From the NCBI RefSeq assembly GCF_044324875.1, contig NZ_CP172185.1: DNA of 64,000 bases; one strand, given 5' to 3'. The notes under the pieces are model-generated. The model saw only the letters and a list, made by a program, of their open reading frames with translations. It was not told where the DNA came from and ran no database searches. Source of the DNA: Escherichia coli (lineage in GTDB: Bacteria > Pseudomonadota > Gammaproteobacteria > Enterobacterales > Enterobacteriaceae). Below, piece by piece: positions 4,295-39,613 of the stretch (the first letter of the stretch is position 1; every line of letters begins with the position of its first letter). The translations under genes were made by a program, and so were the position numbers.

Positions 4295-4483
4295 ATATTA
4301 AGGGGGCGCATATGTATCCGAATTATATATATCATGATTATTTTTTTTAGTTGTTAGAAATAAATTCTTAGCATGGATGCTGTTATTCTTTTTTATATAA
4401 TAAACTTTAGATAATATGAATTGTTTATTGTCAAAAATAAGTATATTTTATTGGGTTAATATATATTTGTATGGTGCATCGGA

Positions 4484-5641
4484 ATGATTGAGTTTATTTG
4501 CTCTGAATTAAATAAAAACCCATATTTAGAAATAATTCCCAATCACAAGTCAAAAATGGTTTATATTGCTTTTTCATCGGTAGATATACCGAGAGGGGCA
4601 TTTATGTTTTGGAAAATAATCAATAGAATGGATGCCTCCAAGATTTTTATTAATGATGAACATAATGGGTGGTATGTTCATGGAATTCCTGGTGTAGGTG
4701 ATGTTAACAAAAGCATTGATTTTTTATTCAATATTTTAAATATGCTTAAAGCAGAAGAGGTAATATTGATAGGCCCCTCAATGGGGGGGTATGGTGCCAT
4801 GTTATATGGTGCTATTCTTAAAATGAAGATGCCATGGATACAATTTCGATGCCTTTCTTTTGGTGGTGAGTTTCATCTGTATATAAAGGAAGCAAGAAGT
4901 GGCAAGCTATCTAAAAAACCACGTAATCCATATTATGCTGATATAAGATGTTTAGTATCCTCATCTGAATTGGATATAGTTCAGGTTTATGGTGACGATG
5001 ATATCAATGATATTTATCAAGCCCATCTTGTTCATGGAATTAAAAATATTGATCTAATTTCTGTAAGAAATTCCCCGCATGCGGTTTCGACGTATTTAGG
5101 AAAGAAAATTGATTTAACAAAAGCAATTAAAAATTATGAATCCTATGGAAAGTTTGAGGTTGAATCTGCATCTAATGTCAGTCAATTTAAAGAGCATGGC
5201 GCTCTATTATATTTTGGTCATTTAATGATGCTTGATAATAATGCTAAAGAGGCAATTAAAAAATTAGAAAAAGCAATAACTATCATACCAGACCATGCTC
5301 TGACGCAGCATAAACTTGGACTTGCATTACTCATGCTGAAAAAAGAAAAAGAAGCACTTTTACACCAAGAATTAGCTATAAATCTAAATCCTGATCTGGC
5401 TCATGCACATTTTCATATTGCCATGCTATCAGAGATGAATGGCGATATTAAAAAGGCTGAGTATCATTACAAAGAGTGTATTAGGTCTGATGAACGTCAT
5501 ATTCGAGCATTGATTTCATTATCATTGTTATATGAAAAAGTAAAGGAGTATGAACTGGCTTTGGATTGTTCATATAAGGTTTTAGCGTATTCTGAAGGTA
5601 ATAAAATGGCCTTGGATATAGTACGAAGAATTACAAAGTAA
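4484..5641 (+). CDS. capsule region-2 protein (385 aa) with alpha/beta-hydrolase-like GxSxG motif and C-terminal TPR-like repeats; function unknown
   Basis: AT-rich ORF co-oriented with region-2 gene 1; GPSMGGYG motif; repeated helical A/L/K-rich C-terminal blocks typical of TPR. Confidence 0.55.
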   Translation: MIEFICSELNKNPYLEIIPNHKSKMVYIAFSSVDIPRGAFMFWKIINRMDASKIFINDEHNGWYVHGIPGVGDVNKSIDFLFNILNMLKAEEVILIGPSMGGYGAMLYGAILKMKMPWIQFRCLSFGGEFHLYIKEARSGKLSKKPRNPYYADIRCLVSSSELDIVQVYGDDDINDIYQAHLVHGIKNIDLISVRNSPHAVSTYLGKKIDLTKAIKNYESYGKFEVESASNVSQFKEHGALLYFGHLMMLDNNAKEAIKKLEKAITIIPDHALTQHKLGLALLMLKKEKEALLHQELAINLNPDLAHAHFHIAMLSEMNGDIKKAEYHYKECIRSDERHIRALISLSLLYEKVKEYELALDCSYKVLAYSEGNKMALDIVRRITK

Positions 5642-5731
5642 AATAATCTGTGTCTCAGTGTAGGTATGTGGCGGTAATGATTTAACTAATAGTTATTGAA
5701 TGTTTCAGTTATACTGAATAAAATTATTATA

Positions 5732-6982
5732 TTAATGGTTTTTAATTTGAGTAGTGTGCATTGTTTGTGTAATGAAAAGATTATTACCATTATTAATATT
5801 ATATTTAAAACACCCATAAAAAACCCAATTAACCTGTGTCTTCACCAATAAATACCCACGAAACTTCTTAAACAGTTTCATATTCGGTTTAAAATCGGCC
5901 TGCCAGAACTGGTGCAAATGCCCTTGATACGTCAAGCCCTTGATGTCGTACAGGGCATTGCCCATCACTTTGAGTGGTTTGTTATGAATCAGTGCAGAGA
6001 TCCCCGCCGTACTGTTAATCGTCACCACCGCTTTAGCATGGCGTAATAGTTCCGGCATCGGGAGATCGTGCACATAAATGACGCGCTCACCTAAGCCATA
6101 TTCCTTACTCAACCGCTTAATTAATGGTCGATAGAGTCTGTGACCACGATCCATCGGATGATGTTTGATCACCAAATAACTTTCTTTCGGCGCTTTACGT
6201 GAAAATGAGTACATGACTTCATTAATATAGTCACGCACATCGTTATAATTGCTGTGGTTACGAATCTGGCTATCGTTATATACCTGCAAAACGGCAAGAT
6301 AATAACGCTGGTCCAACTCGTTCATTAACCTCGGTAATACCTTACGCTGTGTTACCTTGTAAAGTTGCTTGCGCCAGTATGCACGAACCCAGCAACGAGC
6401 TTCATACCACGGGGAAAATGATTTATGGTGGCGGTAGCGAGGGAACTCATGACGGTAATGCCAGCCCATCAGGTAATACCACATCGCATGACCTATACGT
6501 TTCATCGTTGAAGGTTTTAAGTTCTCAACGTGCGGCGTAGGCATATCTGGTAACTTACGATAAAAATCCGGATCGCGCGGTAGCGATGAATATGCGTTCA
6601 CTCCGCCTTCTTCAACGGTAATAAATTGCGGGCGTAAATATCCTTCCTCAAATGCCAGAAAGCGGATCCCTTTCGACTTTGCCCAGCGTTTTGCTTCTTT
6701 GTGCAATGGGCGGCAGTCACCAAAGCAGAGGATGGTATCAAAGTCATATTGCCGGTGGAGATCCCGTAACCATCCGGGGAACTCTTTCGGCGTTTGGTAG
6801 TAAGCCAGGTATTGTCGATGGCGGCAGTAAAAACGATCCCCACCGTTGAATACAACATTCACAGCGTTACGTCCTAATGACTCTAACCATTCGGCGACGT
6901 CATTGAAAAAAGGTCCCATCGGCCCCTGCAATAGCAGATATTTTTTACCGGATAATAAAACGGTTAGTGCATTACCTTGCAT
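5732..6982 (-). CDS. kpsS: KpsS, capsule biosynthesis beta-Kdo transferase (region 1)
   Basis: 416-aa ORF MQGNALTVLLSGKKYLLLQGPMGPFF...; conserved YLAVLQVYNDSQ motif; last gene of the kpsFEDUCS block. Confidence 0.9.
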   Translation of the reverse strand: MQGNALTVLLSGKKYLLLQGPMGPFFNDVAEWLESLGRNAVNVVFNGGDRFYCRHRQYLAYYQTPKEFPGWLRDLHRQYDFDTILCFGDCRPLHKEAKRWAKSKGIRFLAFEEGYLRPQFITVEEGGVNAYSSLPRDPDFYRKLPDMPTPHVENLKPSTMKRIGHAMWYYLMGWHYRHEFPRYRHHKSFSPWYEARCWVRAYWRKQLYKVTQRKVLPRLMNELDQRYYLAVLQVYNDSQIRNHSNYNDVRDYINEVMYSFSRKAPKESYLVIKHHPMDRGHRLYRPLIKRLSKEYGLGERVIYVHDLPMPELLRHAKAVVTINSTAGISALIHNKPLKVMGNALYDIKGLTYQGHLHQFWQADFKPNMKLFKKFRGYLLVKTQVNWVFYGCFKYNINNGNNLFITQTMHTTQIKNH

Positions 6983-7016
6983 AAATAATTTACGTAATAG
7001 TCAACTATGAAATTGT

Positions 7017-9044
7017 TTAGCCAAATCTGACCTTGCAGAACATAATTAATTTGCGGTAATAGCGTATGACTCGCCCCGCTTTTTTTCGGGTAATAAACAT
7101 CGGCTTGCGCGGCGTCTTGATTAAATATTCCGCAGCTTCTTCTACCGTAATAGGTTGTAGCCGTGTTGGGTGGATATAGGTTGGATAAACAATCAACGCC
7201 TGATAGATCAAATCTGCTAACGTTAATTTTTGCTCGCGGCGCGGGCAGTGATGTTCATCAACGGTTAAACCCCAACCGGCATAGAAGGGCAGGCCGTAAC
7301 AATGTACGTGCTTGCCATGTAATAACGCTTCAAACCCGGACAATGATGTCATGGTGTGCACTTCATCTGCGCGCTGAATGCATTGAATAATATCGGCGTC
7401 CAGTGCCTGATAATCAGCGAGTTCAGCAGTCAGTTCTGCCGGAATATCGCCCTTGCGATTCCCCACCAGTACATCCGGGTGCGGTTTATAAACAATGTAG
7501 GCGTGCGGATTGCGCTCGCGTACTGTGCGTAATAACTCAAGGTTGCTCTTAATCGAGACAGTGCCTGTTTTAATAGAGGCATCGTCCTCTACCTGACCCG
7601 GCACCAGGATAACTTTTTTATCTTTGGCTTCGGCTGGTAGAGAGAAATCGGCTCCCAGGTTGTACTTACTCAGTTTGCTTTCAACCAGTCGCTGGCGTAA
7701 TTTTTCAGCTCGCATCTGCTGCGCCAGCGTTAACTGGCTGTGATTAAGCAGGACTTCCAGGTCGCTGGGGCGCGTGGCGTCATAGTAGATCCCGCGTTTA
7801 TCCAGTACCAACGATAGCGGCGGCAGCAGGTCAGAGCCAAGTCCGGATGAACGCAGAAAACCATCTTCCATTCGCCATAACGGCAGTGATTTTTGTTGCG
7901 CTTCGGCTAGCCATTGCTGTTCTCCCTTTACACCCCATACCACGCAAGCCGTCGCCGCAGTACAACGGCGTGAATAACTCAGTCTGTTTGTTGCGGTACG
8001 CAAGAAAGGTTTCAGGATTGCCGACTTCCACAGCGTTAAGCCTGGCGACCATAAATAGCCATTACGCTGTTGCTGATGGTTGCGCTGTAATTGCAGCCAT
8101 TGCAGTACGGTAAACAGATCGCTTGCGGCCCCCGTGAGCGGGTCGATATAGCGACAGTAACGCAGGTATGCAGCGGCAAAAAGTTCTTCCAGCGTGGCAG
8201 AACCGCGTCGGGCAGATAACAAAGCGGACTGCGGATGGCGATCGTCGGTTAAGCCCCAGCCTGCATACCAGGGCTGGCCGAAACATGTTACTGGTTTTCC
8301 TGCCAGCAAGGCTTCAAAGCCGTATTGGGATGTCACGACGTAAACCCGGGAAACGTGTCGCAACAGCGACTGCGGGCTGACATTCTCGGCAATCAAACGT
8401 ACTCGTTGCGTGGCGCGCAGATCAGCGAAATAACCTGTTTTCTTTCCTTCCAGGACATCCGGATGCACCTTCACCCAAATTTCGGCTTGAGGATTTTCCG
8501 CCATCGCGGCTTCCAGCATGGCAGCAAACTCATGCGGGCCAGCATTGCCATACGTCACTGACATATCATTAAATGTCTGATCGACAACCAGAACGATGTC
8601 TGAACGTTCTGACTCATCAGCCACAAACGCAGGTGCTAGGTTATATTTCGACAAATCCCCGGTCACGATGGTGTGCATCGCTTCTCTGGCCAGGCTTATC
8701 AGAGCTGTATTTCCGGCTTTATCCTGTACCAGTTTCTCCAGTGCTGAAGGCTTGCTGGCATCGTAGTAAATGCCACAATCATCCACCACCAGAGAAAGCG
8801 GCGGCTCGCCATTGACGCCAAGATCCAGCGAACGCACAAATCCATCTTCCAGACGAATGACGGGTTTTCCCGCTGCTTTGGCGATGGCGACTGGTTTCGC
8901 CGCGCTGGGACGATGTCCCCACACGGCGATAGCATCAACTTCTTGCGGAACAGGGCGCAGCAGAGAAAGTTTCTGGCACGGTTGCGCCAGAAATTTCTCC
9001 AGATGCGGAATACGCCAGATGCCAGGCGAGTAAATGCCAATCAT
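7017..9044 (-). CDS. kpsC: KpsC, capsule biosynthesis dual-module beta-Kdo transferase
   Basis: 675-aa ORF with two repeated modules ([14 protein letters not shown] / [14 protein letters not shown]); 4-bp overlap with kpsU. Confidence 0.92.
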
Positions 9045-9781
9045 GCGTTTTCAGCCAGTTCCTGTGCCATCAGGGCGCGCACTTTTTCCAGGCATGCTGG
9101 GGTGTCGACGCCCGGACCGGTTGCGGCAACCTCAAATGTGCGGATGTTGATCCCCGCGCTCATCAACCGCAGCTGCTCCAGTGATTCTGCCTGCTCCTGC
9201 ATGGACTCCGGTAACTGGCTGTAGTTTTGCAGCACATCGCGACGATAAGCGTAAATACCAACGTGTTTCAGGTAGCGCGCTTTTTCAGCATTACGCGGAT
9301 ACGGAATAGGCGAACGGCTGAAATAAAGCGCATCCTGGCGGGTATTTACCACCACTTTTACCGTGCTTGGCTCGGTCGCTTCTTCGGCAGAAATCGCGTG
9401 GCATAGCGTTGCCACTGGCAACGCGGGGTCATCACGCATTCCTTGTAACAGCGTTTCTACATCCCGCGGGCGAATCATTGGTTCGTCGCCCTGCAGGTTA
9501 ATGTAGATATCTGCCTCGACTTTATGCATCACCTCGACCAGCCGATCGGTGCCGGATTCATGATCGTTGCGCGTCATGATGGCTTTCCCGCCAAATGCCT
9601 GCACGGCCTGTTCAACACGCGGATCGTCTGTTGCCACCCAAACTTCCGCAACGCCCGCCACCTGTAACGCACGCTCGTAAACATGCTGGATCATCGGTTT
9701 GCCGACAATATCGAGTAGCGGCTTACCCGGCAGACGCGATGAGCCATAACGAGCCGGGATGACAATAACAGCTTTGCTCAT
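9041..9781 (-). CDS. kpsU: KpsU, CMP-Kdo synthetase (KdsB paralog)
   Basis: 246-aa [25 protein letters not shown]...; cytidylyltransferase signature; position in region 1. Confidence 0.92.
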
Positions 9782-9790
9782 TTCAACTCC

Positions 9791-11470
9791 TTACAAAGAC
9801 AGAATCACTTTTGCACCCACCGCCAGCTGATAGAGGATGGTGGAAATACCACGGGTAACTTCAATATTTTTCGATTCATATTTCGGCAGAACCATAATCT
9901 CATCGCCCGGCTTGAGTGAATCCACATCTTCCGCGTTGACCGCAGCACCGTTCTGACGAATGACGATAATTCTGGCGTTACCCGATTTTTGCGTCAGGCC
10001 ACCACATTTCTCGATGTAATCCTCGGTGGTCATTCCCTTCTGCCAGCTCACCGCGTTCGGGAACAGCACCTCGCCGTGAACCATAACCAGCGACGTTTTC
10101 TCCGGAATATTGATGACGTCGCCATCTTCCAGCAGAACAGAATCAATATTGGACTCGTTGAGGATCACTTCACCTTTCGGAACCACGGTGCGCGCTTTCG
10201 CCACAAAGCGGCTGATCAGTTGCGCTTCCTGCATTCGCAGGCTGGCTTCTTCTTTGGTGGAGGACTGGGCGGAAAGAGATGCTTCCTCCAGCTTTTGCAG
10301 CGAGAGATTCAGCATCTCTTTCTGACGCTGGGCCACTGATGGGCGATAAAGCTGAACCGCGTTCATCTGCGACATGCTGTTCGGACGGACTTTTTCCAGA
10401 ACCGCACGCATGGTAGAGCCATAAGGCAGCACCATGGCGTGTTCACCGGAGTGCGCGCCTTCAACCCGCACCTGAATGGTGCCTGCATAGCGGTCAGTGC
10501 TGACGATTAAGGTATCGCCATTTTGCAACATACGGCCTGGCGCAGAACTGATCGGATAGTATTCGCTACGTTTTTGCAGTCCCTGTTTACGCATAATCGT
10601 AATGTGAGTCGCGCCAGGCTTAGGGCGCGCCCAGCTCAACGCTTCCGTTACGGGAATGCTGCTTTCGCGGAACTCAAAGTCGTAGCTGTTAAAGACATCG
10701 CCCTGAACGCTGAAAGTATGCTGACGCGGCCCGACGATGATGGTGTCACCATCGGCGAACTGCGAAAGCCCCAGTTTACCGTTCAGCAGGAAGTCGTACA
10801 GGTTGACGTTGGAGCGCACGCGGTTACCGCGCTTGACCACAATATCAACGTAACTTCCGCGCTCTGGATCAACGCCGCCAGCCTTGATCAGATAATTGAG
10901 TAACGAATCAGACGTCACACCGCCATACAGACCAGGATTACGCACAAATCCGGTCACGTACACTTTTACTGGCTGCGCCTGTAATAAGGAGGCGTAGACG
11001 TTGACGTTGGACTGGTACACTTCCTTCACTTTTGATGTAACCAGAGTGTTCAACTGACTATTGCTAACCCCGGCAACTTTCACCGGACCAACGTTTGGCA
11101 GAAAAATATTACCTTTGGGATCAATCTGTAATGCACCATCAAAGGTGAACGCACCCCACAAGCGAACCTGAATGCTATCACCCGGATTCAGAATATAGTC
11201 AGGGTTGAATCCTACCGTCGCACCGCTATCCGCGCTGGTGCCGTTGAAAAGTTGAGCACCAAACATGCGGCTCATGACCACCGGCGGTGCGGGCGGCGGG
11301 GTATTGTCGAAGCCGCTCATGTTTTGCGTATCCGACTGTTGCCCGTTCAGAATACCGGTAAGCGGCGCGGCTCCTGTCAGGTTTGGGTCAGCGTTAATAT
11401 CAATGGCCGCGCTGGCCTGCGCCGCGTGACAGGCGGCAATCAGTAAAATTGATTTAAATAATTTCATCAC
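9791..11470 (-). CDS. kpsD: KpsD, capsule polysaccharide export protein
   Basis: 559-aa ORF with N-terminal signal peptide MMKLFKSILLIAACHAAQASA; position between kpsU and kpsE. Confidence 0.9.
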   Translation of the reverse strand: MMKLFKSILLIAACHAAQASAAIDINADPNLTGAAPLTGILNGQQSDTQNMSGFDNTPPPAPPVVMSRMFGAQLFNGTSADSGATVGFNPDYILNPGDSIQVRLWGAFTFDGALQIDPKGNIFLPNVGPVKVAGVSNSQLNTLVTSKVKEVYQSNVNVYASLLQAQPVKVYVTGFVRNPGLYGGVTSDSLLNYLIKAGGVDPERGSYVDIVVKRGNRVRSNVNLYDFLLNGKLGLSQFADGDTIIVGPRQHTFSVQGDVFNSYDFEFRESSIPVTEALSWARPKPGATHITIMRKQGLQKRSEYYPISSAPGRMLQNGDTLIVSTDRYAGTIQVRVEGAHSGEHAMVLPYGSTMRAVLEKVRPNSMSQMNAVQLYRPSVAQRQKEMLNLSLQKLEEASLSAQSSTKEEASLRMQEAQLISRFVAKARTVVPKGEVILNESNIDSVLLEDGDVINIPEKTSLVMVHGEVLFPNAVSWQKGMTTEDYIEKCGGLTQKSGNARIIVIRQNGAAVNAEDVDSLKPGDEIMVLPKYESKNIEVTRGISTILYQLAVGAKVILSL

Positions 11471-11490
11471 AAACTCATTCAGCGACAGCG

Positions 11491-12639
11491 TTAGTCTCGG
11501 TGATCTTCAATAACAGCCAGCAACAGTTTCAGGGTGCCGAACAGCAGGCAGCACACCAGTAACCAGCAGGCGATCAAATAAGGGATATTTGGAAAAGACG
11601 ATTCCTGCGGCAACTGTGGCGAACTGATCACTGACAGCACCTTGAGCTTACGAGCCGCTTCTACACGGGTCTTTTCAATGGAGGTCAGGGTCAGTTTGTA
11701 CAGCTCGGTGTTGAACTCTACTTTTGATTTGATTTCTTCAAAATCCACCGCCATACGGTTTAGCTTGTCACCCTGCGGCGCTGTGATTTTGCTTTTTTCT
11801 TCGTCAATTTGTGCCTGCAATGACTGAATCGCATTACGCGCACTCACAACTTGCGGGGCGTCCTCACGCAGATACGTCAGCAAGTTCCGCAGGTCCGCTT
11901 CCATCTGGATCTTCTGGCCCATCAGCGTATTCACTAACGTGCTCGCCGCCTGTGCCTGTGCCTGTGGATCCAGAACGTTGTTGTTGTCTTGATAAGAGAG
12001 CAATTCCGCTTTGCTGGCGTCCAGACGCTGGCGTGCTTTTTCCATCTCCGTTTCTGCAAAGGCAAGCTGGTCACGCGCGATGCGATGTGACATCTCATTG
12101 ATAAAGCGCTCTGACTCTTTCAGCACGGTCTGGTTAAACTTAAGCGCAAACTCCGGGCTAAAGCCCTGCGTCTGAATATTCAGTAATCCGGTTTTATCGT
12201 CATACGAGACGTTGATACGGTCCTTGTAGTACTTCAGGAAGCCTTCTGCAGTTTCATCCTTGCTAAGATGATTAAGAAAATCGAGCCCGCTGTGGCTAAA
12301 CGCTTCACGAAAATTTAGTTGCTTATCCAGCGCCGCCAGCATATCCGGCGAGTTGATGTACTCTTTCAGATACAACGCATCTTCTGCGGAACTGGGGTTA
12401 GAGGCACCCAGAAGCAGACCAAAATTCAGGCTGCCGCTGTTTAAATCATCCGAGCGTTTAATGGCGACTTTCGACTCGCTCATATAGCGAGGCTGGCTGA
12501 AGATAGCCAGATAGATCAGCAGCACCGCCATCGGTGTCAGAATGATGATTTTCGCCAGGTGTTTTTGGATATCTGCCAGTGAGATGGCAGACAGACGAGC
12601 ACGCATCCAGGATACGGCAGACTTCACTTTTATCAACAT
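11491..12639 (-). CDS. kpsE: KpsE, capsule polysaccharide export inner-membrane protein
   Basis: 382-aa ORF with N-terminal and C-terminal hydrophobic segments and central coiled-coil region; region 1 position. Confidence 0.9.
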   Translation of the reverse strand: MLIKVKSAVSWMRARLSAISLADIQKHLAKIIILTPMAVLLIYLAIFSQPRYMSESKVAIKRSDDLNSGSLNFGLLLGASNPSSAEDALYLKEYINSPDMLAALDKQLNFREAFSHSGLDFLNHLSKDETAEGFLKYYKDRINVSYDDKTGLLNIQTQGFSPEFALKFNQTVLKESERFINEMSHRIARDQLAFAETEMEKARQRLDASKAELLSYQDNNNVLDPQAQAQAASTLVNTLMGQKIQMEADLRNLLTYLREDAPQVVSARNAIQSLQAQIDEEKSKITAPQGDKLNRMAVDFEEIKSKVEFNTELYKLTLTSIEKTRVEAARKLKVLSVISSPQLPQESSFPNIPYLIACWLLVCCLLFGTLKLLLAVIEDHRD

Positions 12640-12710
12640 GTAACGATTATCAAAGTTTCAGTGGGGCGCAAACTCAATGAGAGACTAACCTCTCGAACCC
12701 CGTTGCTTAA

Positions 12711-13694
12711 TTAGTCGAAAATGCGCACAAGGCCAGTGACTTTATTTGCCTTGTTGGTCACCAATAATGTTGAGACGCGGTGCTTTTGCATTTTTTCTTC
12801 CGCTTCAATGATCATGGTGTCTTCCGGTAGCGTCAGCGGTTCACGTGTCATCATCTGCGCAGCCGTGGCGGATGTCAGAGAATCCTCTTTTTCCATAAAG
12901 CGACGCAGGTCACCGTCGGTGATAATGCCCGCTAGCCCACCTTCTGCGTCTTCTACCATCACCATTCCCTGGCATCCGCTGGTGATACGTTGAATCACGG
13001 TTTTAAATGACGCATCCAGCTGTACCGCAGGAACATCATGCTGCATGACATCAGCAACGCGGGTCAGCAGGCGACGACCTAATGAACCGCCCGGGTGATA
13101 GCGCGCAAAATCATTCGGCATAAATTTGCGTTGGTGGATCATGGCAATCGCCAGCGCATCGCCGATCGCCATCGTCAGCGTGGTAGACGTTGTTGGTGCA
13201 AGATTATTCGGGCAGGTTTCATTCGCCATGTGGAGTTCCAGCACGGCATCAGCATTTTTCGCCAGCGTGGAATTTCCATTATTGGTAATGGCGATAATTC
13301 GGTTGCCGAAATTTTTCAGTGAAGGAACTAGCTTGAGGATTTCATCCGTTTCACCGCTGGCAGAAATAAGGATCAGAAGATCGTAAGGCGTAATCATGCC
13401 CAGATCGCCATGGAAAGCTTCTGCAGGATGAATAAAGAAACTAGGCGTACCCGTAGAGGCCAGCGTCGCTGACATTTTACGACCGACATGCCCTGATTTA
13501 CCCATTCCCGAAAGAATAACGTGCCCTTTACAGTTCATTATCAAATTAAGGACACGCTGGTACTGCCCGGAATCCAGTTGTTTAGACAAGTTTTGTAATG
13601 CTGCGCCTTGTTCTGCCAGAGTCTGGCGAACAGAGGTAATTAGATATGGATCGATAGTACTGCTCTGGTCATCAGGTAAATGTCTTTCAGACAT
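12711..13694 (-). CDS. kpsF: KpsF, arabinose-5-phosphate isomerase (SIS + CBS domains)
   Basis: ORF track gives 12711..13730; I place the start at the ATG of MSERHL (13692-13694) because an AAAGGAG Shine-Dalgarno lies 6 nt upstream; SIS motif GMGKSGHVG. Confidence 0.88.
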   Translation of the reverse strand: MSERHLPDDQSSTIDPYLITSVRQTLAEQGAALQNLSKQLDSGQYQRVLNLIMNCKGHVILSGMGKSGHVGRKMSATLASTGTPSFFIHPAEAFHGDLGMITPYDLLILISASGETDEILKLVPSLKNFGNRIIAITNNGNSTLAKNADAVLELHMANETCPNNLAPTTSTTLTMAIGDALAIAMIHQRKFMPNDFARYHPGGSLGRRLLTRVADVMQHDVPAVQLDASFKTVIQRITSGCQGMVMVEDAEGGLAGIITDGDLRRFMEKEDSLTSATAAQMMTREPLTLPEDTMIIEAEEKMQKHRVSTLLVTNKANKVTGLVRIFD

Positions 13695-14300
13695 ATCAGC
13701 TCCTTTGCACGGAAATAATGCCACAGTCACAACAAACCCGAACCCACTATAATTTATTTATGCTAAATCAATGGGTTGTAAAAAATTTTTAATGAATATA
13801 AAACCATGGTCAGTCCATGCTTATATGCAGGACTTATCACCTTCTTATTAAGTCGCAATGTCTCATGGAGGTGCGAAGATGCTGCAATATTACAGGCGAG
13901 AAGGGGAACCAAATTTTGCCCACCTATTTAACACACCCCTACATTATGAACAAGGAATTTAGGATTTTTATCATTTATTAAAATGTTTTCTACTTGACTA
14001 TTAAGAACAAAAACAATTTATCAATTGATTATTTCCTTGTAAAAAAAGAACGTATGACTATGTTATTAATAAATAAAACACGCAAATAATGGTGATGTTG
14101 TTTTGTGATTAACTATTTAAGTGCGGCATAATAAACAGGTTGACAATTTCTATGTAAAGAAGAGGAAAATAATAAAATTTTAGCGGTGACTATTGAATGA
14201 TATGATAGTTGTGGTGTTGATTATTTCTGGTAATGAATGCGGAATTAAATCTGGCCGGATTGTATTTTTGCTATATCTATTTTTCAGGAGATTATTATTA
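13695..14300 (-). promoter_or_regulatory. AT-rich kps region-1 upstream/promoter region
   Basis: long AT-rich ORF-free tract immediately upstream of kpsF; promoter elements not individually resolved. Confidence 0.35.
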
Positions 14301-31506: not shown

Positions 31507-32443
31507 TCTCGCACCGGCAGGACAAAAAGACAGCATTGAAATGCGCAAAGTTTATGCAGATTTTATCGCGCAACAGAGTAAAAACGTCAGTTCTGTCATT
31601 GCTCTTGAGGCTGATTTAATGAGTTCCATGGCAATGGACAGCGTGGCGCAGGATTATCCAGATCACGTCATTAATTGCGGCATTATGGAAGCCAATGTTA
31701 TCGGCACAGCTGCAGGGCTGGCCTTAACCGGGCGCAAGCCATTCGTGCATACCTTTACCGCATTTGCCAGTCGTCGCTGTTTTGATCAACTCTTTATGTC
31801 GCTTGATTACCAGGGCGCTAACGTCAAAGTTATAGCTTCTGATGCGGGTGTTGCTGCTTGCCACAATGGCGGAACACATATGTCATTTGAAGATATGGGA
31901 ATTGTGCGCGGGCTGGCGCATTCGGTGGTGATGGAGATGACAGATGCCGTAATGTTCAGCGATATCTTGCGTCAACTCGTTGCACTGGAAGGATTTTATT
32001 GGATTCGTACCATTCGGAAGCAAGCAGCGAGTATTTACGCACCAGGTACAACCTTTACAATTGGCAAAGGGCAGGTATTACGTGAAGGTACGGATGTCAC
32101 CTTAATTGCTAATGGCATTATGGTGGTGGAAGCCCTGGAGGCCGCACGTCAACTTGAGCTGGCTGGGGTAAGTGTAGCGGTGATTGATATGTTTACGCTC
32201 AAACCCGTTGATCGGATGTTAATTAAAAATTATGCCGAAAAAACAGGACGGATCGTAACATGTGAAAACCATAGTATTCATAATGGATTAGGTTCAGCGG
32301 TTGCTGAAGTGCTTGTAGAAACTTGTCCTGTGCCCATGCGTCGGGTGGGGGTTAAAGAGCGGTATGGCCAGGTTGGAACTCAGGACTTTTTACAGAGAGA
32401 GTACGGGTTAACCGCGCAAGATATTGGTAAGCGTACAGCCTGA
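31499..32443 (+). CDS. transketolase, C-terminal subunit; last codons replaced by IS66-family insertion
   Basis: 314-aa ORF; IS left end (32427) lies 17 nt before the stop, so the terminal GKRTA* is IS-derived. Confidence 0.85.
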   Translation: MINLAPAGQKDSIEMRKVYADFIAQQSKNVSSVIALEADLMSSMAMDSVAQDYPDHVINCGIMEANVIGTAAGLALTGRKPFVHTFTAFASRRCFDQLFMSLDYQGANVKVIASDAGVAACHNGGTHMSFEDMGIVRGLAHSVVMEMTDAVMFSDILRQLVALEGFYWIRTIRKQAASIYAPGTTFTIGKGQVLREGTDVTLIANGIMVVEALEAARQLELAGVSVAVIDMFTLKPVDRMLIKNYAEKTGRIVTCENHSIHNGLGSAVAEVLVETCPVPMRRVGVKERYGQVGTQDFLQREYGLTAQDIGKRTA

Positions 32444-32497
32444 ACCGTCTGGTCAGAATCTGACGAATTAGACAAAGTGGTGTCCACCAAATAAGTA

Positions 32498-32899
32498 GTG
32501 GGAACCAAAGTGTCAGATATGCAGAAAAATGTGACTCCCGGCAGGCGAAAAGGCTGCCCTAATTATCCTCCCGAATTTAAACAGCAGCTCGTTGCTGCCT
32601 CCTGTGAACCCGGGATATCCATCTCAAAACTTGCTCTTGAAAATGGCATTAACGCCAATCTGTTGTTCAAATGGCGACAACAATGGCGCGAGGGAAAGCT
32701 GCTATTACCTTCTTCAGAGAGCCCCCAGCTACTTCCTGTGACTCTCGATGCAGCTGCCGAACAGCCAGAATCGCTCGCAGAGGACCCGGAAACCCTCAGT
32801 ATCAGCTGTGAGGTAACGTTCCGGCACGGGACGCTCCGCTTCAATGGCAATGTCAGCGAAAAGCTCCTGACTCTGCTGATACAGGAACTGAAGCGATGA
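32498..32899 (+). CDS. IS66-family accessory protein OrfA
   Basis: 133-aa ORF with HTH-like ...NANLLFKWRQQWREGKL. Confidence 0.85.
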   Translation: MGTKVSDMQKNVTPGRRKGCPNYPPEFKQQLVAASCEPGISISKLALENGINANLLFKWRQQWREGKLLLPSSESPQLLPVTLDAAAEQPESLAEDPETLSISCEVTFRHGTLRFNGNVSEKLLTLLIQELKR

Positions 32900-33243
32900 T
32901 CCCTTTACCTTCCGGGACCAAAATTTGGCTGGTTGCCGGTATCACCGATATGAGAAATGGCTTCAACGGCCTGGCTGCGAAAGTACAGACGGCGCTGAAA
33001 GACGATCCCATGTCCGGCCATGTTTTCATTTTCCGGGGCCGCAGCGGCAGTCAGGTTAAACTGCTGTGGTCCACCGGTGACGGACTGTGCCTCCTGACCA
33101 AACGGCTGGAGCGTGGGCGCTTCGCCTGGCCGTCAGCCCGTGATGGCAAAGTGTTCCTTACACAGGCGCAGCTGGCGATGCTGCTGGAAGGTATCGACTG
33201 GCGACAGCCTAAGCGGCTGCTGACCTCCCTGACCATGCTGTAA
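32896..33243 (+). CDS. IS66-family OrfB
   Basis: 115-aa [34 protein letters not shown]...; 4-bp overlap with orfA. Confidence 0.85.
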
Positions 33244-33292
33244 ATCTCTTTATCCTGGTTGTCACAGAATAAGCCCGGTAAAATACGGGCTT

Positions 33293-34831
33293 ATGAACGA
33301 CATCTCTTCTGACGACATCTTCCTGCTGAAACAGCGCCTGGCCGAACAGGAAGCGCTGATCCACGCCCTGCAGGAAAAGCTGAGCAACCGGGAGCGCGAA
33401 ATAGACCATCTGCAGGCGCAGCTGGATAAACTCCGCCGGATGAACTTCGGCAGTCGTTCCGAAAAAGTCTCCCGCCGTATCGCACAAATGGAAGCCGATC
33501 TGAACCAGCTTCAGAAAGAGAGCGATACGCTGACTGGTAGGGTGTATGACCCGGCAGTACAGCGTCCGTTGCGTCAGACCCGCATCCGTAAGCCGTTCCC
33601 TGAATCACTACCCCGTGACGAAAAGCGACTGTTGCCTGCGGCGCCGTGCTGCCCGAACTGCGGCGGTTCACTGAGCTATCTGGGCGAGGATACCGCCGAA
33701 CAGCTGGAGTTGATGCGTAGCGCCTTCCGGGTTATCCGGACGGTACGGGAAAAACATGCCTGTACTCAGTGCGATGCCATCGTGCAGGCACCTGCACCTT
33801 CGCGGCCCATCGAGCGGGGTATCGCCGGACCGGGGCTGCTGGCCCGCGTGCTGACCTCGAAGTATGCAGAGCACACCCCGCTGTATCGCCAGTCAGAAAT
33901 ATACGGCCGGCAAGGTGTGGAGCTGAGCCGTTCACTGCTGTCGGGCTGGGTGGATGCATGCTGCCGGCTGCTGTCTCCGCTGGAAGAGGCGCTTCATGGC
34001 TATGTCATGACTGACGGCAAACTCCATGCCGATGATACCCCGGTCCAGGTACTGATGCCGGGTAATAAGAAGACGAAGACCGGGCGGTTGTGGGCGTATG
34101 TTCGTGATGACCGCAATGCCGGGTCAGCGTTGGCACCTGCAGTGTGGTTCGCTTACAGCCCGGACAGAAAAGGCATCCATCCGCAGACTCATCTTGCTTG
34201 CTTCAGCGGTGTGCTGCAAGCGGATGCGTACGCCGGGTTCAACGAGCTGTATCGCAATGGTGGGATAACGGAAGCTGCCTGCTGGGCTCATGCCCGCCGA
34301 AAGATCCACGATGTGCACGTCCGCATCCCGTCAGCACTGACGGAAGAAGCCCTGGAGCAGATCGGTCAGTTGTACGCCATAGAGGCGGATATAAGGGGAA
34401 TGCCGGCAGAGCAGCGGCTTGCTGAACGTCAGCGAAAAACGAAACCGCTGTTGAAATCCCTGGAAAGCTGGTTGCGTGAAAAGATGAAGACCCTGTCGCG
34501 ACACTCAGAGTTGGCGAAGGCGTTCGCGTACGCACTTAACCAGTGGCCGGCACTGACGTACTATGCGAACGATGGCTGGGTGGAAATCGACAACAACATC
34601 GCTGAAAATGCCCTGCGGGCGGTAAGTCTGGGTCGTAAAAACTTCCTGTTCTTCGGCTCTGGCCATGGTGGTGAGCGGGGAGCGCTACTGTACAGCCTGA
34701 TAGGGACGTGCAAACTGAATGACGTGGATCCAGAAAGCTACCTTCGCCATGTGCTTGGCGTCATAGCAGACTGGCCGGTCAACCGGGTCAGCGAACTGCT
34801 TCCGTGGCGCATAGCACTGCCAGCTGAATAA
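33293..34831 (+). CDS. IS66-family transposase OrfC
   Basis: 512-aa ORF with N-terminal leucine zipper, CCPNCGG zinc motif and DDE core. Confidence 0.9.
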
Positions 34832-35113
34832 CACATCCCCGTCAATACGGCCCTCGCTGTACGCTTACAGATATTGTGGCGGCAGCCAGAGAGCTATTGT
34901 AATTCATGGAGTTTGTTTACCATTCTGTTTTTCTTAAAAGTGAGTGTCTGTGCGGTCACTAAACTCGGTAATAAAGCAGTTCATTGCAGGATAAGAAGCG
35001 TTTGGTTGTGTCGTTTTACCGTAAGAACCGACCGCCGTATGTAGCCATTAAGCCAGTATTGGTAACGTAGGTGCCCACCTTTTCAATGTACTGCGCCCCA
35101 AATCTTGGACATC

Positions 35114-35893
35114 CTATGAAAAATGTTTAAGTCGATATTGAACCGGACTCATACCATCGAGTTTCTCTTTAATGCGATGGTGATTGTAGTATTCAATGTA
35201 ATCAATTATATCTTGCTTTAGATGATGTAACTTATTGTATTTATTTAGATAGTAACATTCTGATTTTAATGTACTAAAAAAGCTTTCCATTGCTGCATTA
35301 TCTAAGCAGTTACCACGTCGGGACATGCTTTGTGTTATGCCATTATCACTCAACCAACGTTGCCAACGAGGCATCTGATATTGCCACCCCTGATCACTAT
35401 GCAACAAGGGCTTATCGTCTTTATTGAGTTGTTCTACCGCATCTAATAGCATGCTCTTTACCATTGATGCTAATGGGCGCTCAGTAAGGTTATATGAGAC
35501 TATTTCTCCATTATACAGGTCCATGATTGGTGATAAATAGAGCTTCCTGCCATCGACCTTAAACTCAGTGACATCTGTTACCCACTTTTGATTTGGGCGG
35601 TCAGCATAAAATTGTCTCTTCAGTAAATTATTACAAGTTCGCCCCTGTTCTCCACGATAGGCACGGTACTTCTTGCGCCTGATAAGTGAGCTGATACCCA
35701 GTTCCTTCATTAACTTTCTGATGGTTTTACCATTAAGTAAAATGCCCTCGTTACGGCAGGCAAGTCTGATGCGTCGATAACCATAACGCCCTTTATGCTG
35801 ATGGTATATTCTCAATATTACTTGTTTAACAAGTTGATATGGATCTGGCGCATTAAGGCGTTTCACGTGATAGTAAAATGTACTACGTGGCAA
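35114..35893 (-). CDS. IS3-family transposase OrfB (DDE integrase core); probably expressed as OrfAB fusion by -1 frameshift
   Basis: 259-aa ORF with rve-type motifs; its frame stays open upstream into the end of orfA. Confidence 0.8.
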   Translation of the reverse strand: MPRSTFYYHVKRLNAPDPYQLVKQVILRIYHQHKGRYGYRRIRLACRNEGILLNGKTIRKLMKELGISSLIRRKKYRAYRGEQGRTCNNLLKRQFYADRPNQKWVTDVTEFKVDGRKLYLSPIMDLYNGEIVSYNLTERPLASMVKSMLLDAVEQLNKDDKPLLHSDQGWQYQMPRWQRWLSDNGITQSMSRRGNCLDNAAMESFFSTLKSECYYLNKYNKLHHLKQDIIDYIEYYNHHRIKEKLDGMSPVQYRLKHFS

Positions 35894-35952
35894 ATCAGCG
35901 ATAACCAGTAATTGTGATAATGGATGACATTGCCTTAACTCATTAATAATGA

Positions 35953-36453
35953 TTACTTTTTCTTTTGTTCCAATCGTAATTTTTCCTGAGCTAAGGCTTT
36001 CAGCTTTTTTAGATAAGCGTTCTCAACTCTCAGAAACTCAAGTTCTTCCCGTTCACTGATTGTCAGTTGTGTCGAACGATTTCGTTGATAAACAGCAGGA
36101 GTTTTCGGCCTCAAATCTTCCTTTTGTCCCTTCATCGAAAAATCAACCTCACTGTATTTTTTAATCCATTTGGATATGGTGTTAAAAGCAGGGATCCCAT
36201 ACTTCACTGCAGCTTCCCTTATAGAAAGAGAATTATCAATAACATCTCTGACCACATTCAATCTGAAGTTATCGTCATAACGTCTTTTTTGCCCAGTCAG
36301 TGTTTTTAATCCGTGCTTACGGTAAACATAAGCCCATTTCCTTACCGTGCTGGGGTCAATATTGTACATTTTTCCAACAGACTTCAAACTCAGCTCACCT
36401 TCCAGGTATTTTTCTGATACTTCCCTTTTGAATTCTAATGAAAATTTGCTCAT
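35953..36453 (-). CDS. IS3-family transposase OrfA (HTH)
   Basis: 166-aa ORF ending in coiled-coil EQKKK; G-AAA-AAG slippery-like run at its 3' end. Confidence 0.8.
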   Translation of the reverse strand: MSKFSLEFKREVSEKYLEGELSLKSVGKMYNIDPSTVRKWAYVYRKHGLKTLTGQKRRYDDNFRLNVVRDVIDNSLSIREAAVKYGIPAFNTISKWIKKYSEVDFSMKGQKEDLRPKTPAVYQRNRSTQLTISEREELEFLRVENAYLKKLKALAQEKLRLEQKKK

Positions 36454-36695: not shown

Positions 36696-37548
36696 AAAGG
36701 GAGATGAAAAAGGCAATAGCAGAACTGAGTGACAGTGAAACCATTCTGGCGTACAGGGTTGGATGGTGAAACTGATAAAAAAACCCCTCTGAAAATTCTG
36801 TCAGAGGGGTGTAGTCAATAAGGGTGTCATATTCAACATGAAGATGTCTTCTGGGAATGTTTACATAGCAAATGCTTTCACTCCGGTAATTAATTTCCGT
36901 GATTAACTGCTTTCGATCAATAAAGGAATTGCAAAAGTGTGATCTTGTTCACGACATTGTGGATGATAATATGCCTGATGTCTGAATCCGGAAACAGTGA
37001 TCTGGCGGTTTCATGTGAAGTTGACGGATAAAAAATCCGCACGACCAGACAGACGTGCGGTTTACGAAATTCGTAACAAGAGGCTTTTCTACGGATCACG
37101 TGGTGCGTGCCACGTGAAATTTTTGTAGCGCAAAATGTGTGATGTGTAAATACAAGGAAGGAAAAAAGTTAAATCGGTGGAAGTCCATGCCTGCCACATG
37201 TATGTCTGCATTCCTCGTTTTGAACAGAATTCTCACCAGACATCGTGAATTTCTCATTCAATCATCAGAGATATTACCCAGGATTTTTATTGTTTTGTGA
37301 TAGCAGTACTTTAAATGTTCAGATGCTAAAATAAGCGCGCTTATTATAATTATAGTTATGATGTTTTATCTTTATGTATTTTAATGATTTTCTCGTCATT
37401 GCTTTTCTGCTGCTTAAATTGAGGGCGCATATTATACACAATAATATTCCTGGCATTATTAAATTAATAAAAGAGGATTCTTATCACTGTATTTTTGCTC
37501 CGCACTACCGTTCTGGCTGGTGAAGTAATAATACAGGAGAATAACAGA

Positions 37549-39096
37549 ATGCTTAAAAGACGTGATGCTTTTTTAAAGAAAAGCGCGCTGGCAGTGAGTG
37601 TGGCCCTGCTGCTCTCATCTCAGGCTCAGGCTCAGGATATTTTATTCGGACCGATTCAACCTGGCGAAGATAATAGCTTTCTTGTTGGAGATTCAGTAGC
37701 TGGCCGTTCGTCTGGTGACATAAGAAATGTATGGTTGGTGGGTGATAATTCTTTTTTATTAGACTCAAACAGGACTGTGCTTTTGGGGAATAATTCTGGT
37801 GTTGTGAGCTCTCCGGGAAGTGTGAGTCTGGGGCATGATGCACTTATTGCTGACTCTGAATGGGGGACTGTTGCAGGAAAAGAAGCGTCACTTATTTCTT
37901 CTCGTCAGAGCTCGGCAATTGGTGCGTTTTCATCTGTGCAGGATTCTACCAGTTCTGTAGCTCTGGGCCATGGCTCACAGGTGTCGGGAGAAAATAACGT
38001 GGTATCTGTTGGTGCCGGGCCTGAGGGATATGGAGAGAGTGTCAAAGGAGCACCGGAAACCCGCCGGATTATAAATGTGTCTGATGGTATCAATAACACA
38101 GATGCAGCGACGGTAGGGCAACTGAATGAACGATTTGATGATGCACAGGTCTTTTTGTTGCAGACGAATGAAAGAATTGACGAGACAGATAAACGTCTTT
38201 CAACAGTTCATGCTGAACTCAGCAGGGATATTATTGCAGGCACATCGGCAGCGGTGACGTATACAGATGTAACAGCGCTTGCACTTCAGGATGAGATAAA
38301 GGATGGGACGAACAAAGTACGTGATGAGTTGAAATCACAGGGAGACAGTCTGCGTGGTGAGATAGGCGGTGTATACAGAGATGCCCGTGCTCATACTGAC
38401 AGTCAGGTCACAGCAGTACGTGATGAACTGAAGGCAGAGGGAGACAGTCTGCGCGGTGAGATAGGCGGTGTATACAGAGATGCCCGTGCTCATACTGACA
38501 GTCAGGTTACAGCAGTACGTGATGAACTCAGCAGGGATATTATTGCAGGCACATCGGCAGCGGTGGCGTATACGGATGCATCTTCTCTTGCTCTTCAGGA
38601 TGAAATAAAAGAAAAAGCGGATGAAACAGTTCAGGTTTCCCGGGCTTATACAGATAAAAGTGTACGGGATGCCCGTAAAGAAGCGAAAAGCCAGGCAGAA
38701 CATCTCAGCGATGTGCTTGTGAAGAACAGGGCGCAGACGGATGCAGCAATAGCCTCAAATACAGCAGCGATAAGGAATAACAGTCATCGTCTGGATTTGA
38801 CGGAAGCCTGGCAGAAGATGGCGACAGAGAGAATGAATAATATGCAGGAGCAGATTAAAGAGAACCGGAAGGAGTTAAGGGAGAGTGCAGCCCAGAGCGC
38901 GGCACTGGCAGGTCTTTTCCAGCCATACAGTGTTGGAAAATTTAACGCGACAGCAGCCGTTGGTGGTTACCGTGATGAGCAGGCCATTGCGGTGGGCGTG
39001 GGCTACCGTTTCACAGAGAATGTGGCAGGAAAAGTTGCAGTTGCTGCAGGTGGGTCATCCGCATCGTGGAATGCTGGTGTGAATTTTGAGTTCTGA
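37549..39096 (+). CDS. trimeric autotransporter adhesin (YadA-like C-terminal anchor) with repetitive coiled-coil stalk
   Basis: start placed at ATG 37549 (AGGAGA 9 nt upstream; signal peptide [28 protein letters not shown]); C-terminus ...GVGYRF...AGVNFEF. Confidence 0.85.
38317..38514 (+). repeat. 2 x 99-bp in-frame near-perfect tandem repeat within the adhesin stalk
   Basis: units at 38317-38415 and 38416-38514 differ at a few positions; flanked by a ~95-bp dispersed repeat pair at ~38211-38306 and ~38521-38615. Confidence 0.85.
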
Positions 39097-39157
39097 CAGG
39101 TCAGGATTTAGATATCTGTCCCGGGGGGAGTCCCCCGGGATATAATGAGGTACAGAG

Positions 39158-39613
39158 ATGCTGGATATAATCCTGGCGACGAGAGATATTTATTTTGAAA
39201 AAGCCCTGCGAGAGATATTTGGAACCGTAAGCAGTCGAATCAGATATATAGAAGATGCCATATCAGACAGAAGAAGGGTGCAGTCAGGCAGGTCATTCAG
39301 ATATTATTTTGTATTCTGTGATGATGAGTATACAGATATTGTTCGTATTCTTTTTACCGGAGAGGCCTGCTGTATTCTGAATAAGTCGATGCTGAATCTG
39401 AGAGCGGCCGGAGGTGTGTTGACGCTGGAAGAGCGCAGAGCGGTACTGAACCGGTATTACAGAGGTTTAAGTATTGCGGAGATTACAGAAGAGACGGGGC
39501 AGAATGACAAGACGGTATACGGTCATCTTCGTCGTGCACTGCAGCGGTCTGGATTCCGGAAGGGGCGTTTTATAAAGGGGAGAGAAGCGGCGGGGGATTC
39601 AGGTGTTGAATAA
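39158..39613 (+). CDS. small HTH protein resembling sigma-70 region 4 / LuxR-type DNA-binding domain
   Basis: 151-aa ORF; LTLEERRAVLNRYYRGLSIAEITEETGQNDKTVYGHLRRALQR pattern; start uncertain. Confidence 0.5.
   Translation: MLDIILATRDIYFEKALREIFGTVSSRIRYIEDAISDRRRVQSGRSFRYYFVFCDDEYTDIVRILFTGEACCILNKSMLNLRAAGGVLTLEERRAVLNRYYRGLSIAEITEETGQNDKTVYGHLRRALQRSGFRKGRFIKGREAAGDSGVE

Follow-up and report, generated by a model that had tools for sequence, protein, structure and literature searches.

Positions 37549–39096 of a 64,000-nucleotide stretch of Escherichia coli DNA (NCBI RefSeq assembly GCF_044324875.1, contig NZ_CP172185.1; the whole stretch is referred to here as the window) hold a gene that is predicted to encode an intact trimeric (type Vc) autotransporter adhesin (TAA), with trimer formation and adhesive activity among the predicted properties of its product. 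The stalk of this protein contains a 33-residue cassette, termed B, that is duplicated in tandem and bracketed by a second, dispersed repeat, termed A. The explanation that we favour, and that we hold to be probable, is that of an intact TAA whose B cassette expands and contracts in frame and with preservation of the coiled-coil register, by recombination or slippage, accompanied by shuffling among paralogous copies of the gene. The coding sequence (CDS) and its repeat units are laid out as follows.

37549–39096, plus strand: CDS of the trimeric autotransporter adhesin, 515 residues plus stop, the sole long open reading frame (ORF) of the region in the ORF listing
38198–38303, plus strand: outer repeat A1, protein core at residues 223–251, by direct-repeat search and protein mapping
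38316–38414, plus strand: tandem unit B1, residues 257–289, by Tandem Repeats Finder, direct-repeat search and protein mapping
38415–38513, plus strand: tandem unit B2, residues 290–322, by the same three means
38507–38612, plus strand: outer repeat A2, protein core at residues 326–354, by direct-repeat search and protein mapping

With Tandem Repeats Finder, an array of period 99 emerges at 38316–38528 (2.2 copies, 93% matches, no indels, score 377), and the direct-repeat search likewise gives 93% identity between B1 and B2. The outer units A1 and A2 form a direct pair of 106 nt each that is 86% identical at a spacing of 309 nt, such that the order of units along the protein is A-B-B-A. Both lags are multiples of three (99 nt = 33 codons, 309 nt = 103 codons), and the units are translated in the frame of the CDS. 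An earlier reading made without database searches (the sequence-only reading) had placed the 99-bp tandem duplication at 38317–38514, i.e. within 1 nt of the limits found here, and had put the bracketing pair at ∼95 bp, which is ∼10 nt off the 106 nt that we observe; its claim that both repeats are in frame likewise holds. Exact direct repeats within the CDS run to 53 bp, as compared with a longest repeat of 10.3 bp on average and 17 bp at most in 300 codon shuffles, and the best 99-nt window identity reaches 95% at a lag of 99 nt and 87% at one of 309 nt, whereas the shuffles attain at most 53% at any lag. Both repeats are thus far beyond chance. B1 and B2 differ at 7 nt, with five of the affected codons being synonymous and two replacing a residue (KSQ versus KAE), and as six of these seven differences are clustered within the first 39 nt, a perfectly identical core of 53 bp is left. 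Repeats in general are open to mis-assembly, and an assembly artefact was therefore weighed as an explanation of the duplication; nothing specific speaks in its favour and we regard it as extremely unlikely. At least 11 complete-genome records (some of them apparently re-deposits of the same assembly) contain the identical two-copy stalk segment of 701 bp at 99.7–100% identity, the array is just 198 bp long, and B1 and B2 are distinguishable in assembly because seven positions differ between them.

The copy number of B differs among relatives. The protein comparison comprised the 120 best homologs, with architectures assigned by motif mapping; 86 of these are full-length and in frame, with neck and anchor invariant. 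Homolog lengths step by 33 residues (482/515/548 residues, or 480/513/546 residues with a second head allele), and the number of B units ranges from 0 to 4, including between proteins with identical heads. An invariant copy number across homologs, which would have spoken against the length variation put forward in the sequence-only reading, is thus not what is found. The architectures observed are ABA, ABBA, ABBBA, BBABBA, BABBA, BBBA, BB and BA, together with ABB and ABBB forms that carry internal deletions and an alternative cassette that lies between A-like units (proteins P0096 and P0102). By approximate, hand-summed contig counts, ABA is found 140 times, ABBA 300 times and ABBBA 60 times. 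Fourteen groups of identical-head proteins each carry more than one architecture, which indicates that the changes are both recent and recurrent. The counterpart of the 701-bp segment in complete genomes measures 701 bp where there are two B units and 602 bp where there is one, and it is shorter where the cassettes are arranged otherwise. Every indel observed keeps the reading frame and lies at a register-preserving boundary. In a one-copy allele (L010), the single unit has the 5′ end of B1 (KSQ, CGT) and the 3′ marker of B2 (GTT), a hybrid of the kind that would be expected as the product of unequal exchange within the 53-bp identical core.

In the mechanism that we propose, unequal homologous recombination or replication slippage between B1 and B2, across the 53-bp core, would expand or contract the array in frame and would thereby give the one-, two- and three-copy alleles of the E. 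coli population. The sequence-only reading had named both slipped-strand and recombinational events as sources of length variation; the copy-number differences and the B1/B2 hybrid of the one-copy allele uphold the recombinational part, whereas classical short-tract slipped-strand mispairing is not apt for units of 99 bp. As a second layer, shuffling among paralogous copies would recombine head alleles, neck-exit variants and cassettes. The family is mosaic at this larger scale, with at least three divergent head alleles and two neck-exit variants combined with an invariant neck core and C-terminus. This clear mosaicism, the alternative cassette of P0096 and P0102, and the presence of multiple paralogs per genome may also be taken to mean that the diversity stems mainly from whole-segment exchange between alleles or paralogs (by horizontal transfer or gene conversion) and not from change within the array itself. 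As the main source of diversity we consider such exchange rather unlikely, since the 14 identical-head groups with one, two or three B units and the B1/B2 hybrid find their simplest account in an unequal exchange that is local; neither process rules out the other. We infer the recombination pathway, its rate and its phenotypic effect. As the repeats are in frame, the changes would be changes of length and not an on/off switching of expression. The likely consequence, judged from other TAAs, would be an altered projection of the head beyond lipopolysaccharide (LPS) and capsule and an altered antigenic surface, and by analogy stalk length may affect the reach, aggregation, adhesion or antigenicity of this protein.

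The assignment of the gene product as a TAA is borne by the following features of the CDS and its immediate 5′ flank.

37534–37539, plus strand: ribosome-binding site CAGGAG, 9 nt 5′ of the ATG, by direct reading
37549–37632, plus strand: Sec-type signal peptide, residues 1–28, with an AxA (AQA) cleavage motif, by inspection
37619–37636, plus strand: (CTCAGG)x3 hexanucleotide tandem repeat, coding for an (AQ)n tract in the region where the signal peptide is cleaved
37636–38028, plus strand: YadA-like beta-roll head, residues ∼30–160, allele ‘QDILFGP...’, by SadA profile matches and a weak Pfam YadA_head match
38041–38133, plus strand: neck, residues ∼165–195, by Pfam PF05662 over residues 173–194 (2.9e-5) and alignment to SadA necks
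38134–38739, plus strand: right-handed (hendecad-type) coiled-coil stalk, residues 196–397, with [Y/H/Q]TD motifs, by motifs, hydrophobic period and AlphaFold2 helix
38740–38916, plus strand: membrane-proximal left-handed coiled coil, residues 398–456, with polar-core IASNT, Eib-like, by the [VI]xxNT motif and identity to EibA/EibD
38917–39093, plus strand: YadA-type beta-barrel anchor, residues 457–515, by Pfam PF03895 (YadA_anchor, 3.5e-16)

The order of domains is that of type Vc proteins, i.e. a signal peptide followed by head, neck, coiled-coil stalk and a C-terminal YadA-like anchor. In agreement with the identity proposed in the sequence-only reading, the Pfam matches to anchor (3.5e-16) and neck (2.9e-5) are joined by a PDB sequence search in which the anchor matches the YadA anchor structure 2lme (2e-17, or 7e-20 with the family profile), and by matches of the family profile to the SadA head/neck fragments 2yo0 (5e-9) and 2yo3 (1.5e-6). 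NCBIfam gives only sub-threshold, partial matches, to YadA, BimA, EmaA and Vomp. An anchor of the four-strand YadA/Eib type should trimerise into a 12-strand barrel. The limits of the CDS are those of RefSeq-annotated homologous CDSs (1548 bp, ‘YadA-like family protein’) at 99.2–99.3% identity in E. coli genomes. Residues 30–160 bear beta-roll-type repeats, and strands are present at residues 42–147 in a low-confidence AlphaFold2 model. The membrane-proximal coiled coil is invariant among homologs.

On inspection, the signal peptide has a basic n-region, a hydrophobic core and the cleavage motif AQA, and residues 1–23 are near-invariant across 14 aligned homologs. The CTCAGG tract is reported by Tandem Repeats Finder with period 6, 3 copies and 100% matches, and the (AQ)n tract that it encodes varies by ±2 residues among homologs, giving proteins of 515, 517 and 519 residues (‘SAQAQAQD’ versus ‘SAQAQAQAQD’); the signal-peptide c-region, or else the mature N-terminus, is thus length-polymorphic as well, by one or two AQ units. 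The n-region KRRDAFLKK (window 37549–37580) bears a loose likeness to the twin-arginine motif. On a plasmid, a truncated copy of the 5′ end of the adhesin gene (locus L004, 5093–5677) is annotated ‘Tat pathway signal sequence protein’, a label (Tat denoting twin-arginine translocation) that is probably a mis-annotation because TAAs are Sec substrates. An antisense ORF of 122 residues runs across the repeat block (window 38335–38703, minus strand); it is most likely a shadow ORF made by the repeats and is without evidence of being a gene.

Right-handed stalk repeats of TAAs have as their hallmark a YxD motif, usually with threonine at x, and are confined to the stretch from the last neck to the anchor (daTAA, PMC2373917). 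In the present protein, xTD motifs are found at residues 212, 238, 282, 315, 341, 367 and 396 of the stalk. Fourier analysis of hydrophobicity over residues 196–395 gives a period of 3.68 residues, which is equalled in strength by 0.2% of shuffles, and the block formed by B1 and B2 has a period of 3.67. The AlphaFold2 monomer model has continuous helix at residues 186–342 and 352–454; as the model is poor, with a mean predicted local distance difference test (pLDDT) score of 47, secondary structure alone was taken from it. The distal stalk thus reads as a YxD-type coiled coil of roughly 3.67-residue (hendecad) period that is built from cassettes, and the motifs, the 3.68-residue period and the helical model bear out the sequence-only view of the repeats as coiled-coil stalk segments. 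From residue 398, the stalk changes to a polar-core heptad pattern (IASNT, matching the [VI]xxNT polar-core motif described in daTAA, PMC2373917) and is then followed by the anchor. Fourier analysis detects no significant hydrophobic periodicity in residues 396–456, and the left-handed assignment of this segment rests on the polar-core motif together with homology to the Eibs. One B unit of 33 residues equals three hendecads, or about nine helical turns; because of this, gain or loss of a B unit should keep the core in register, and each unit would shift the length of the stalk by ∼5 nm (33 × 0.15 nm).

Some part of the query is matched in 373 of the 5426 complete genomes, with at least 80% of it covered in 15, and the stalk cassette segment is present in 183 (∼3% of complete E. 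coli genomes). Every DNA match of full length lies on an E. coli chromosome, in a gene with the annotation ‘YadA-like family protein’; plasmids gave no full-length match and a single hit, a truncated piece of the N-terminal part carried by an IncI plasmid. Among the matches listed are many poultry and human isolates, often with several copies of the gene. We found no paper in the literature that characterises this adhesin, and the gene is not dealt with in the IrmA paper or in the genome paper of enteroaggregative E. coli 042.

Several observations weigh against the interpretation of the locus as an intact, length-variable adhesin. The literature searched yielded no expression, surface-display, adhesion or trimerisation data for this adhesin family. 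The simple A–A deletion product, of about 412 residues, is absent among the 120 best homologs, the AlphaFold2 monomer, at a pLDDT of 47, is a poor model, and the B unit holds a Gly-rich GEIGGVY segment that is unusual in a coiled-coil core. The polymorphism could also consist of rare events that were spread by recombination between paralogs; strain TUM9803 carries the identical adhesin protein twice, in two different islands. Finally, the gene sits amid insertion sequence (IS) elements, and among its homologs there are some that are truncated or broken up by an IS. Considerations of this kind can be extended to an account in which the repeat polymorphism is a neutral by-product of recombination-prone sequence and the gene is perhaps a poorly expressed cargo of an IS-rich island. 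Such an account would be in keeping with the IS3, IS66 and IS1414 elements that flank the locus, with the existence of truncated, IS-interrupted and pseudogene-like relatives and with the occurrence of the cassette in just 183 of 5426 complete genomes, and non-adaptive evolution of TAAs has reportedly been argued for the Brucellaceae. We hold it to be possible but doubtful, in view of the 86 of 120 best homologs that retain full length, reading frame and an unvarying neck and anchor, of the in-frame, register-preserving nature of every observed indel, and of the retention of the gene in up to several paralogous copies per genome.

The surroundings of the adhesin gene include capsule genes, IS elements, a small downstream gene and a second autotransporter.

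9791–11470: polysaccharide export protein, among kps-type capsule genes
12711–13730: KpsF/GutQ-family (kpsF-type) isomerase, among kps-type capsule genes at the left end of the window
33293–34831: IS66-family element (transposase), upstream of the adhesin gene
35114–36453: IS3-family element, upstream of the adhesin gene
39117–39142, plus strand: GC-rich hairpin with an 11-bp stem, a GAGU loop and no T-tract, between the adhesin gene and the next gene, by RNA folding
39158–39613, plus strand: protein of 151 residues with a sigma-70 region-4-like helix-turn-helix (HTH), by Pfam Sigma70_r4_2 (4e-7, residues 87–130)
39901–41106: IS1414 (IS256 family), downstream of the adhesin gene
59908–63732: classical (type Va) autotransporter of 1274 residues, with C-terminal beta-barrel domain TIGR01414 (1e-14)

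The HTH gene starts 62 nt downstream of the adhesin gene and is annotated beside it in most of the E. coli matches. Its product has weak NCBIfam sigma matches and shows a weak collinear match (22% identity, E = 2e-4) to orf-156, which lies downstream of eibD; orf-156 follows eib genes in the prophages of ECOR-9. The HTH protein is a candidate dedicated regulator of the adhesin, judged from its domain and position. With an eib-like C-terminus and an orf-156-like neighbour, the locus gives the impression of being distantly related to the eib module, with another passenger in place. The intervening hairpin folds at −23.6 kcal/mol (z = −2.1). In TUM9803, IS421 is inserted at the position of the hairpin in one of the adhesin copies, with an overlap of ∼12 bp at 39124–39135 in the alignment.

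The kps-type genes at the left end of the window indicate that the adhesin island abuts a capsule locus, as do pheV islands in extraintestinal pathogenic E. coli. The capsule stretch (881–13730) also has a glycosyltransferase-like gene and a gene for a 1137-residue protein with a HAD domain. LacI-type regulator, phosphotransferase system and transketolase genes are located upstream of the adhesin gene, and a YaiO/glycosyltransferase cluster downstream of it. A segment of ∼2.4 kb (32426–34869) that is present in the window is absent from the otherwise 99.5–99.9% identical TUM9803 locus. The window contains no second copy of the adhesin gene, and a tRNA scan detected no tRNA in its 64 kb, so that the attachment site of the island is not in view. 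A study of the pheV island names an ‘ibr (immunoglobulin-binding protein)’ module (PMC11537424), which may correspond to the present locus. The capsule neighbourhood and the HTH gene also enter a more far-reaching conjecture, in which A-(B)n-A would be a dedicated high-frequency length switch: clonal stalks of one, two and three units, in register-preserving steps of ∼5 nm, would fit the exposure of the head to how thick the co-located K capsule and O-antigen are, and the region-4-like HTH protein would control expression, making the adhesin a coiled-coil counterpart of Periscope proteins. We consider this distinctly unlikely.

The relationship to the immunoglobulin-binding Eib proteins bears on function. 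The last 118 residues (398–515, i.e. membrane-proximal coiled coil and anchor) are 57% identical to EibA and EibD, and some database entries name members of the family ‘immunoglobulin-binding protein’, although this name probably derives from similarity in the anchor and is annotation only. A homolog on NZ_OY754357.1 (L009, 824–2281), which has the architecture BBBA and a different head, has a DUF4376 (tail-fibre-associated) gene on one side and a DinI-like gene on the other, a setting that appears prophage-like and resembles the context of eib genes. The adhesin might thus be functionally of the Eib type, such that its stalk binds IgG/IgA Fc non-immunologically and provides serum resistance, with the number of repeats setting the number of binding sites rather than reach. 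The C-terminal identity and the database names are compatible with this, as are the resemblance of the adhesin and its small downstream ORF to eib and orf-156, the prophage-like context of L009, which is shared with eib genes, and the location of the Ig-binding regions of EibD in the stalk (PMC7247746). Outside the C-terminal module, however, the head and right-handed stalk align weakly and with gaps to EibD, and the structure of the EibD passenger (2XQH) is not matched by phmmer or by the family profile even at E ≤ 1. Apart from a short GGVY motif, nothing in the Eibs corresponds to the A and B units. The saddle insertion that joins the right- and left-handed coiled coils of EibD (PMC7247746) is without a counterpart, as in the alignment to EibD the YxD stalk passes directly into the [VI]xxNT heptads. 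On the weak and gappy passenger alignment, the unmatched 2XQH and the lack of a saddle, we rejected membership of the Eib family, which is marked by high similarity in passenger and C-terminus alike (PMC7247748). An Eib-type function is unlikely in our estimation, and immunoglobulin binding by this adhesin is possible but unsupported.

E. coli is usually credited with four characterised groups of TAAs, i.e. Eib, Saa, UpaG and EhaG (PMC7247748). The present locus represents a further E. coli TAA family that has so far existed in annotation only. TAAs with variable stalk repeats are already familiar, and this uncharacterised family adds a member in which stalk length demonstrably varies in steps of 33 residues. 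If it is true that this length tunes the exposure of the head relative to capsule and LPS, adhesion, aggregation and antibody access would be affected, and it would become more complicated to use the protein as a target for typing or vaccines. The ABA, ABBA and ABBBA forms on identical backgrounds provide a natural series for studying how stalk length relates to TAA function.

As compared with the known systems, the adhesin is in its general plan similar to the Eibs (EibA, C, D, E, F and G), which are proteins of ∼390–510 residues with a YadA-like head, a neck, a right- and then left-handed stalk and an anchor, are followed by a small ORF and may be present as several paralogs per strain. The A and B cassettes are, however, absent from the Eibs, no Eib likeness can be recognised in the head and right-handed stalk, and eib genes lie in lambdoid prophages, whereas the present copy is found next to kps on a chromosomal island rich in IS elements. 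Saa, the autoagglutinating adhesin of Shiga toxigenic E. coli (plasmid pO113), reportedly varies in size through a 37-residue repeat. Like the present protein, it is an E. coli TAA (∼516 residues) whose size differs between strains (PMC7247748); Saa is plasmid-borne and has another repeat unit, whereas the full-length matches here are chromosomal, and at 24.9% identity over 72% of the query it was rejected as an identification. Two further candidates were set aside: eYadA of TW-XM, a strain of avian pathogenic E. coli (APEC; PMC12955052), has 338 residues, is encoded at a different locus (cueR-ybbJ) and is 23% identical over 160 residues, and the tkt1 island of APEC O1 (PMC3349570) is another island (metE-ysgA) and is without an adhesin. 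YadA of Yersinia has the same overall plan, in which a YxD right-handed stalk leads straight into a left-handed segment and the anchor, and provides the 2lme anchor match (2e-17); identity is nevertheless about 30% and is confined to the C-terminal third, and with an NCBIfam NF033478 score of 71.7 bits against a cut-off of 750 the protein was not assigned to YadA. Cha of the Haemophilus cryptic genospecies, in which the repeat unit is 28 residues, is unrelated in sequence to the E. coli adhesin. It offers a parallel in having an in-frame tandem peptide repeat of varying copy number in a TAA passenger, and the number of repeats modulates surface exposure, adhesion and biofilm formation, according to the summary given in PMC9704523. 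In Periscope proteins, tandem stalk repeats have high DNA identity, and expansion and contraction in the population has been proposed to occur by homologous recombination and to change the projection of the tip domain (PMC9704523). The class is defined by a stalk that is monomeric and single-chain and is made up of near-identical domains in tandem, each folding independently, and explicitly excludes multimeric coiled-coil TAAs (PMC9704523), whereas the units here are coiled-coil segments with a small range of copy number (0–4); membership was rejected on this basis. By analogy, the adhesin would thus work like a Periscope protein but is no member of the class.

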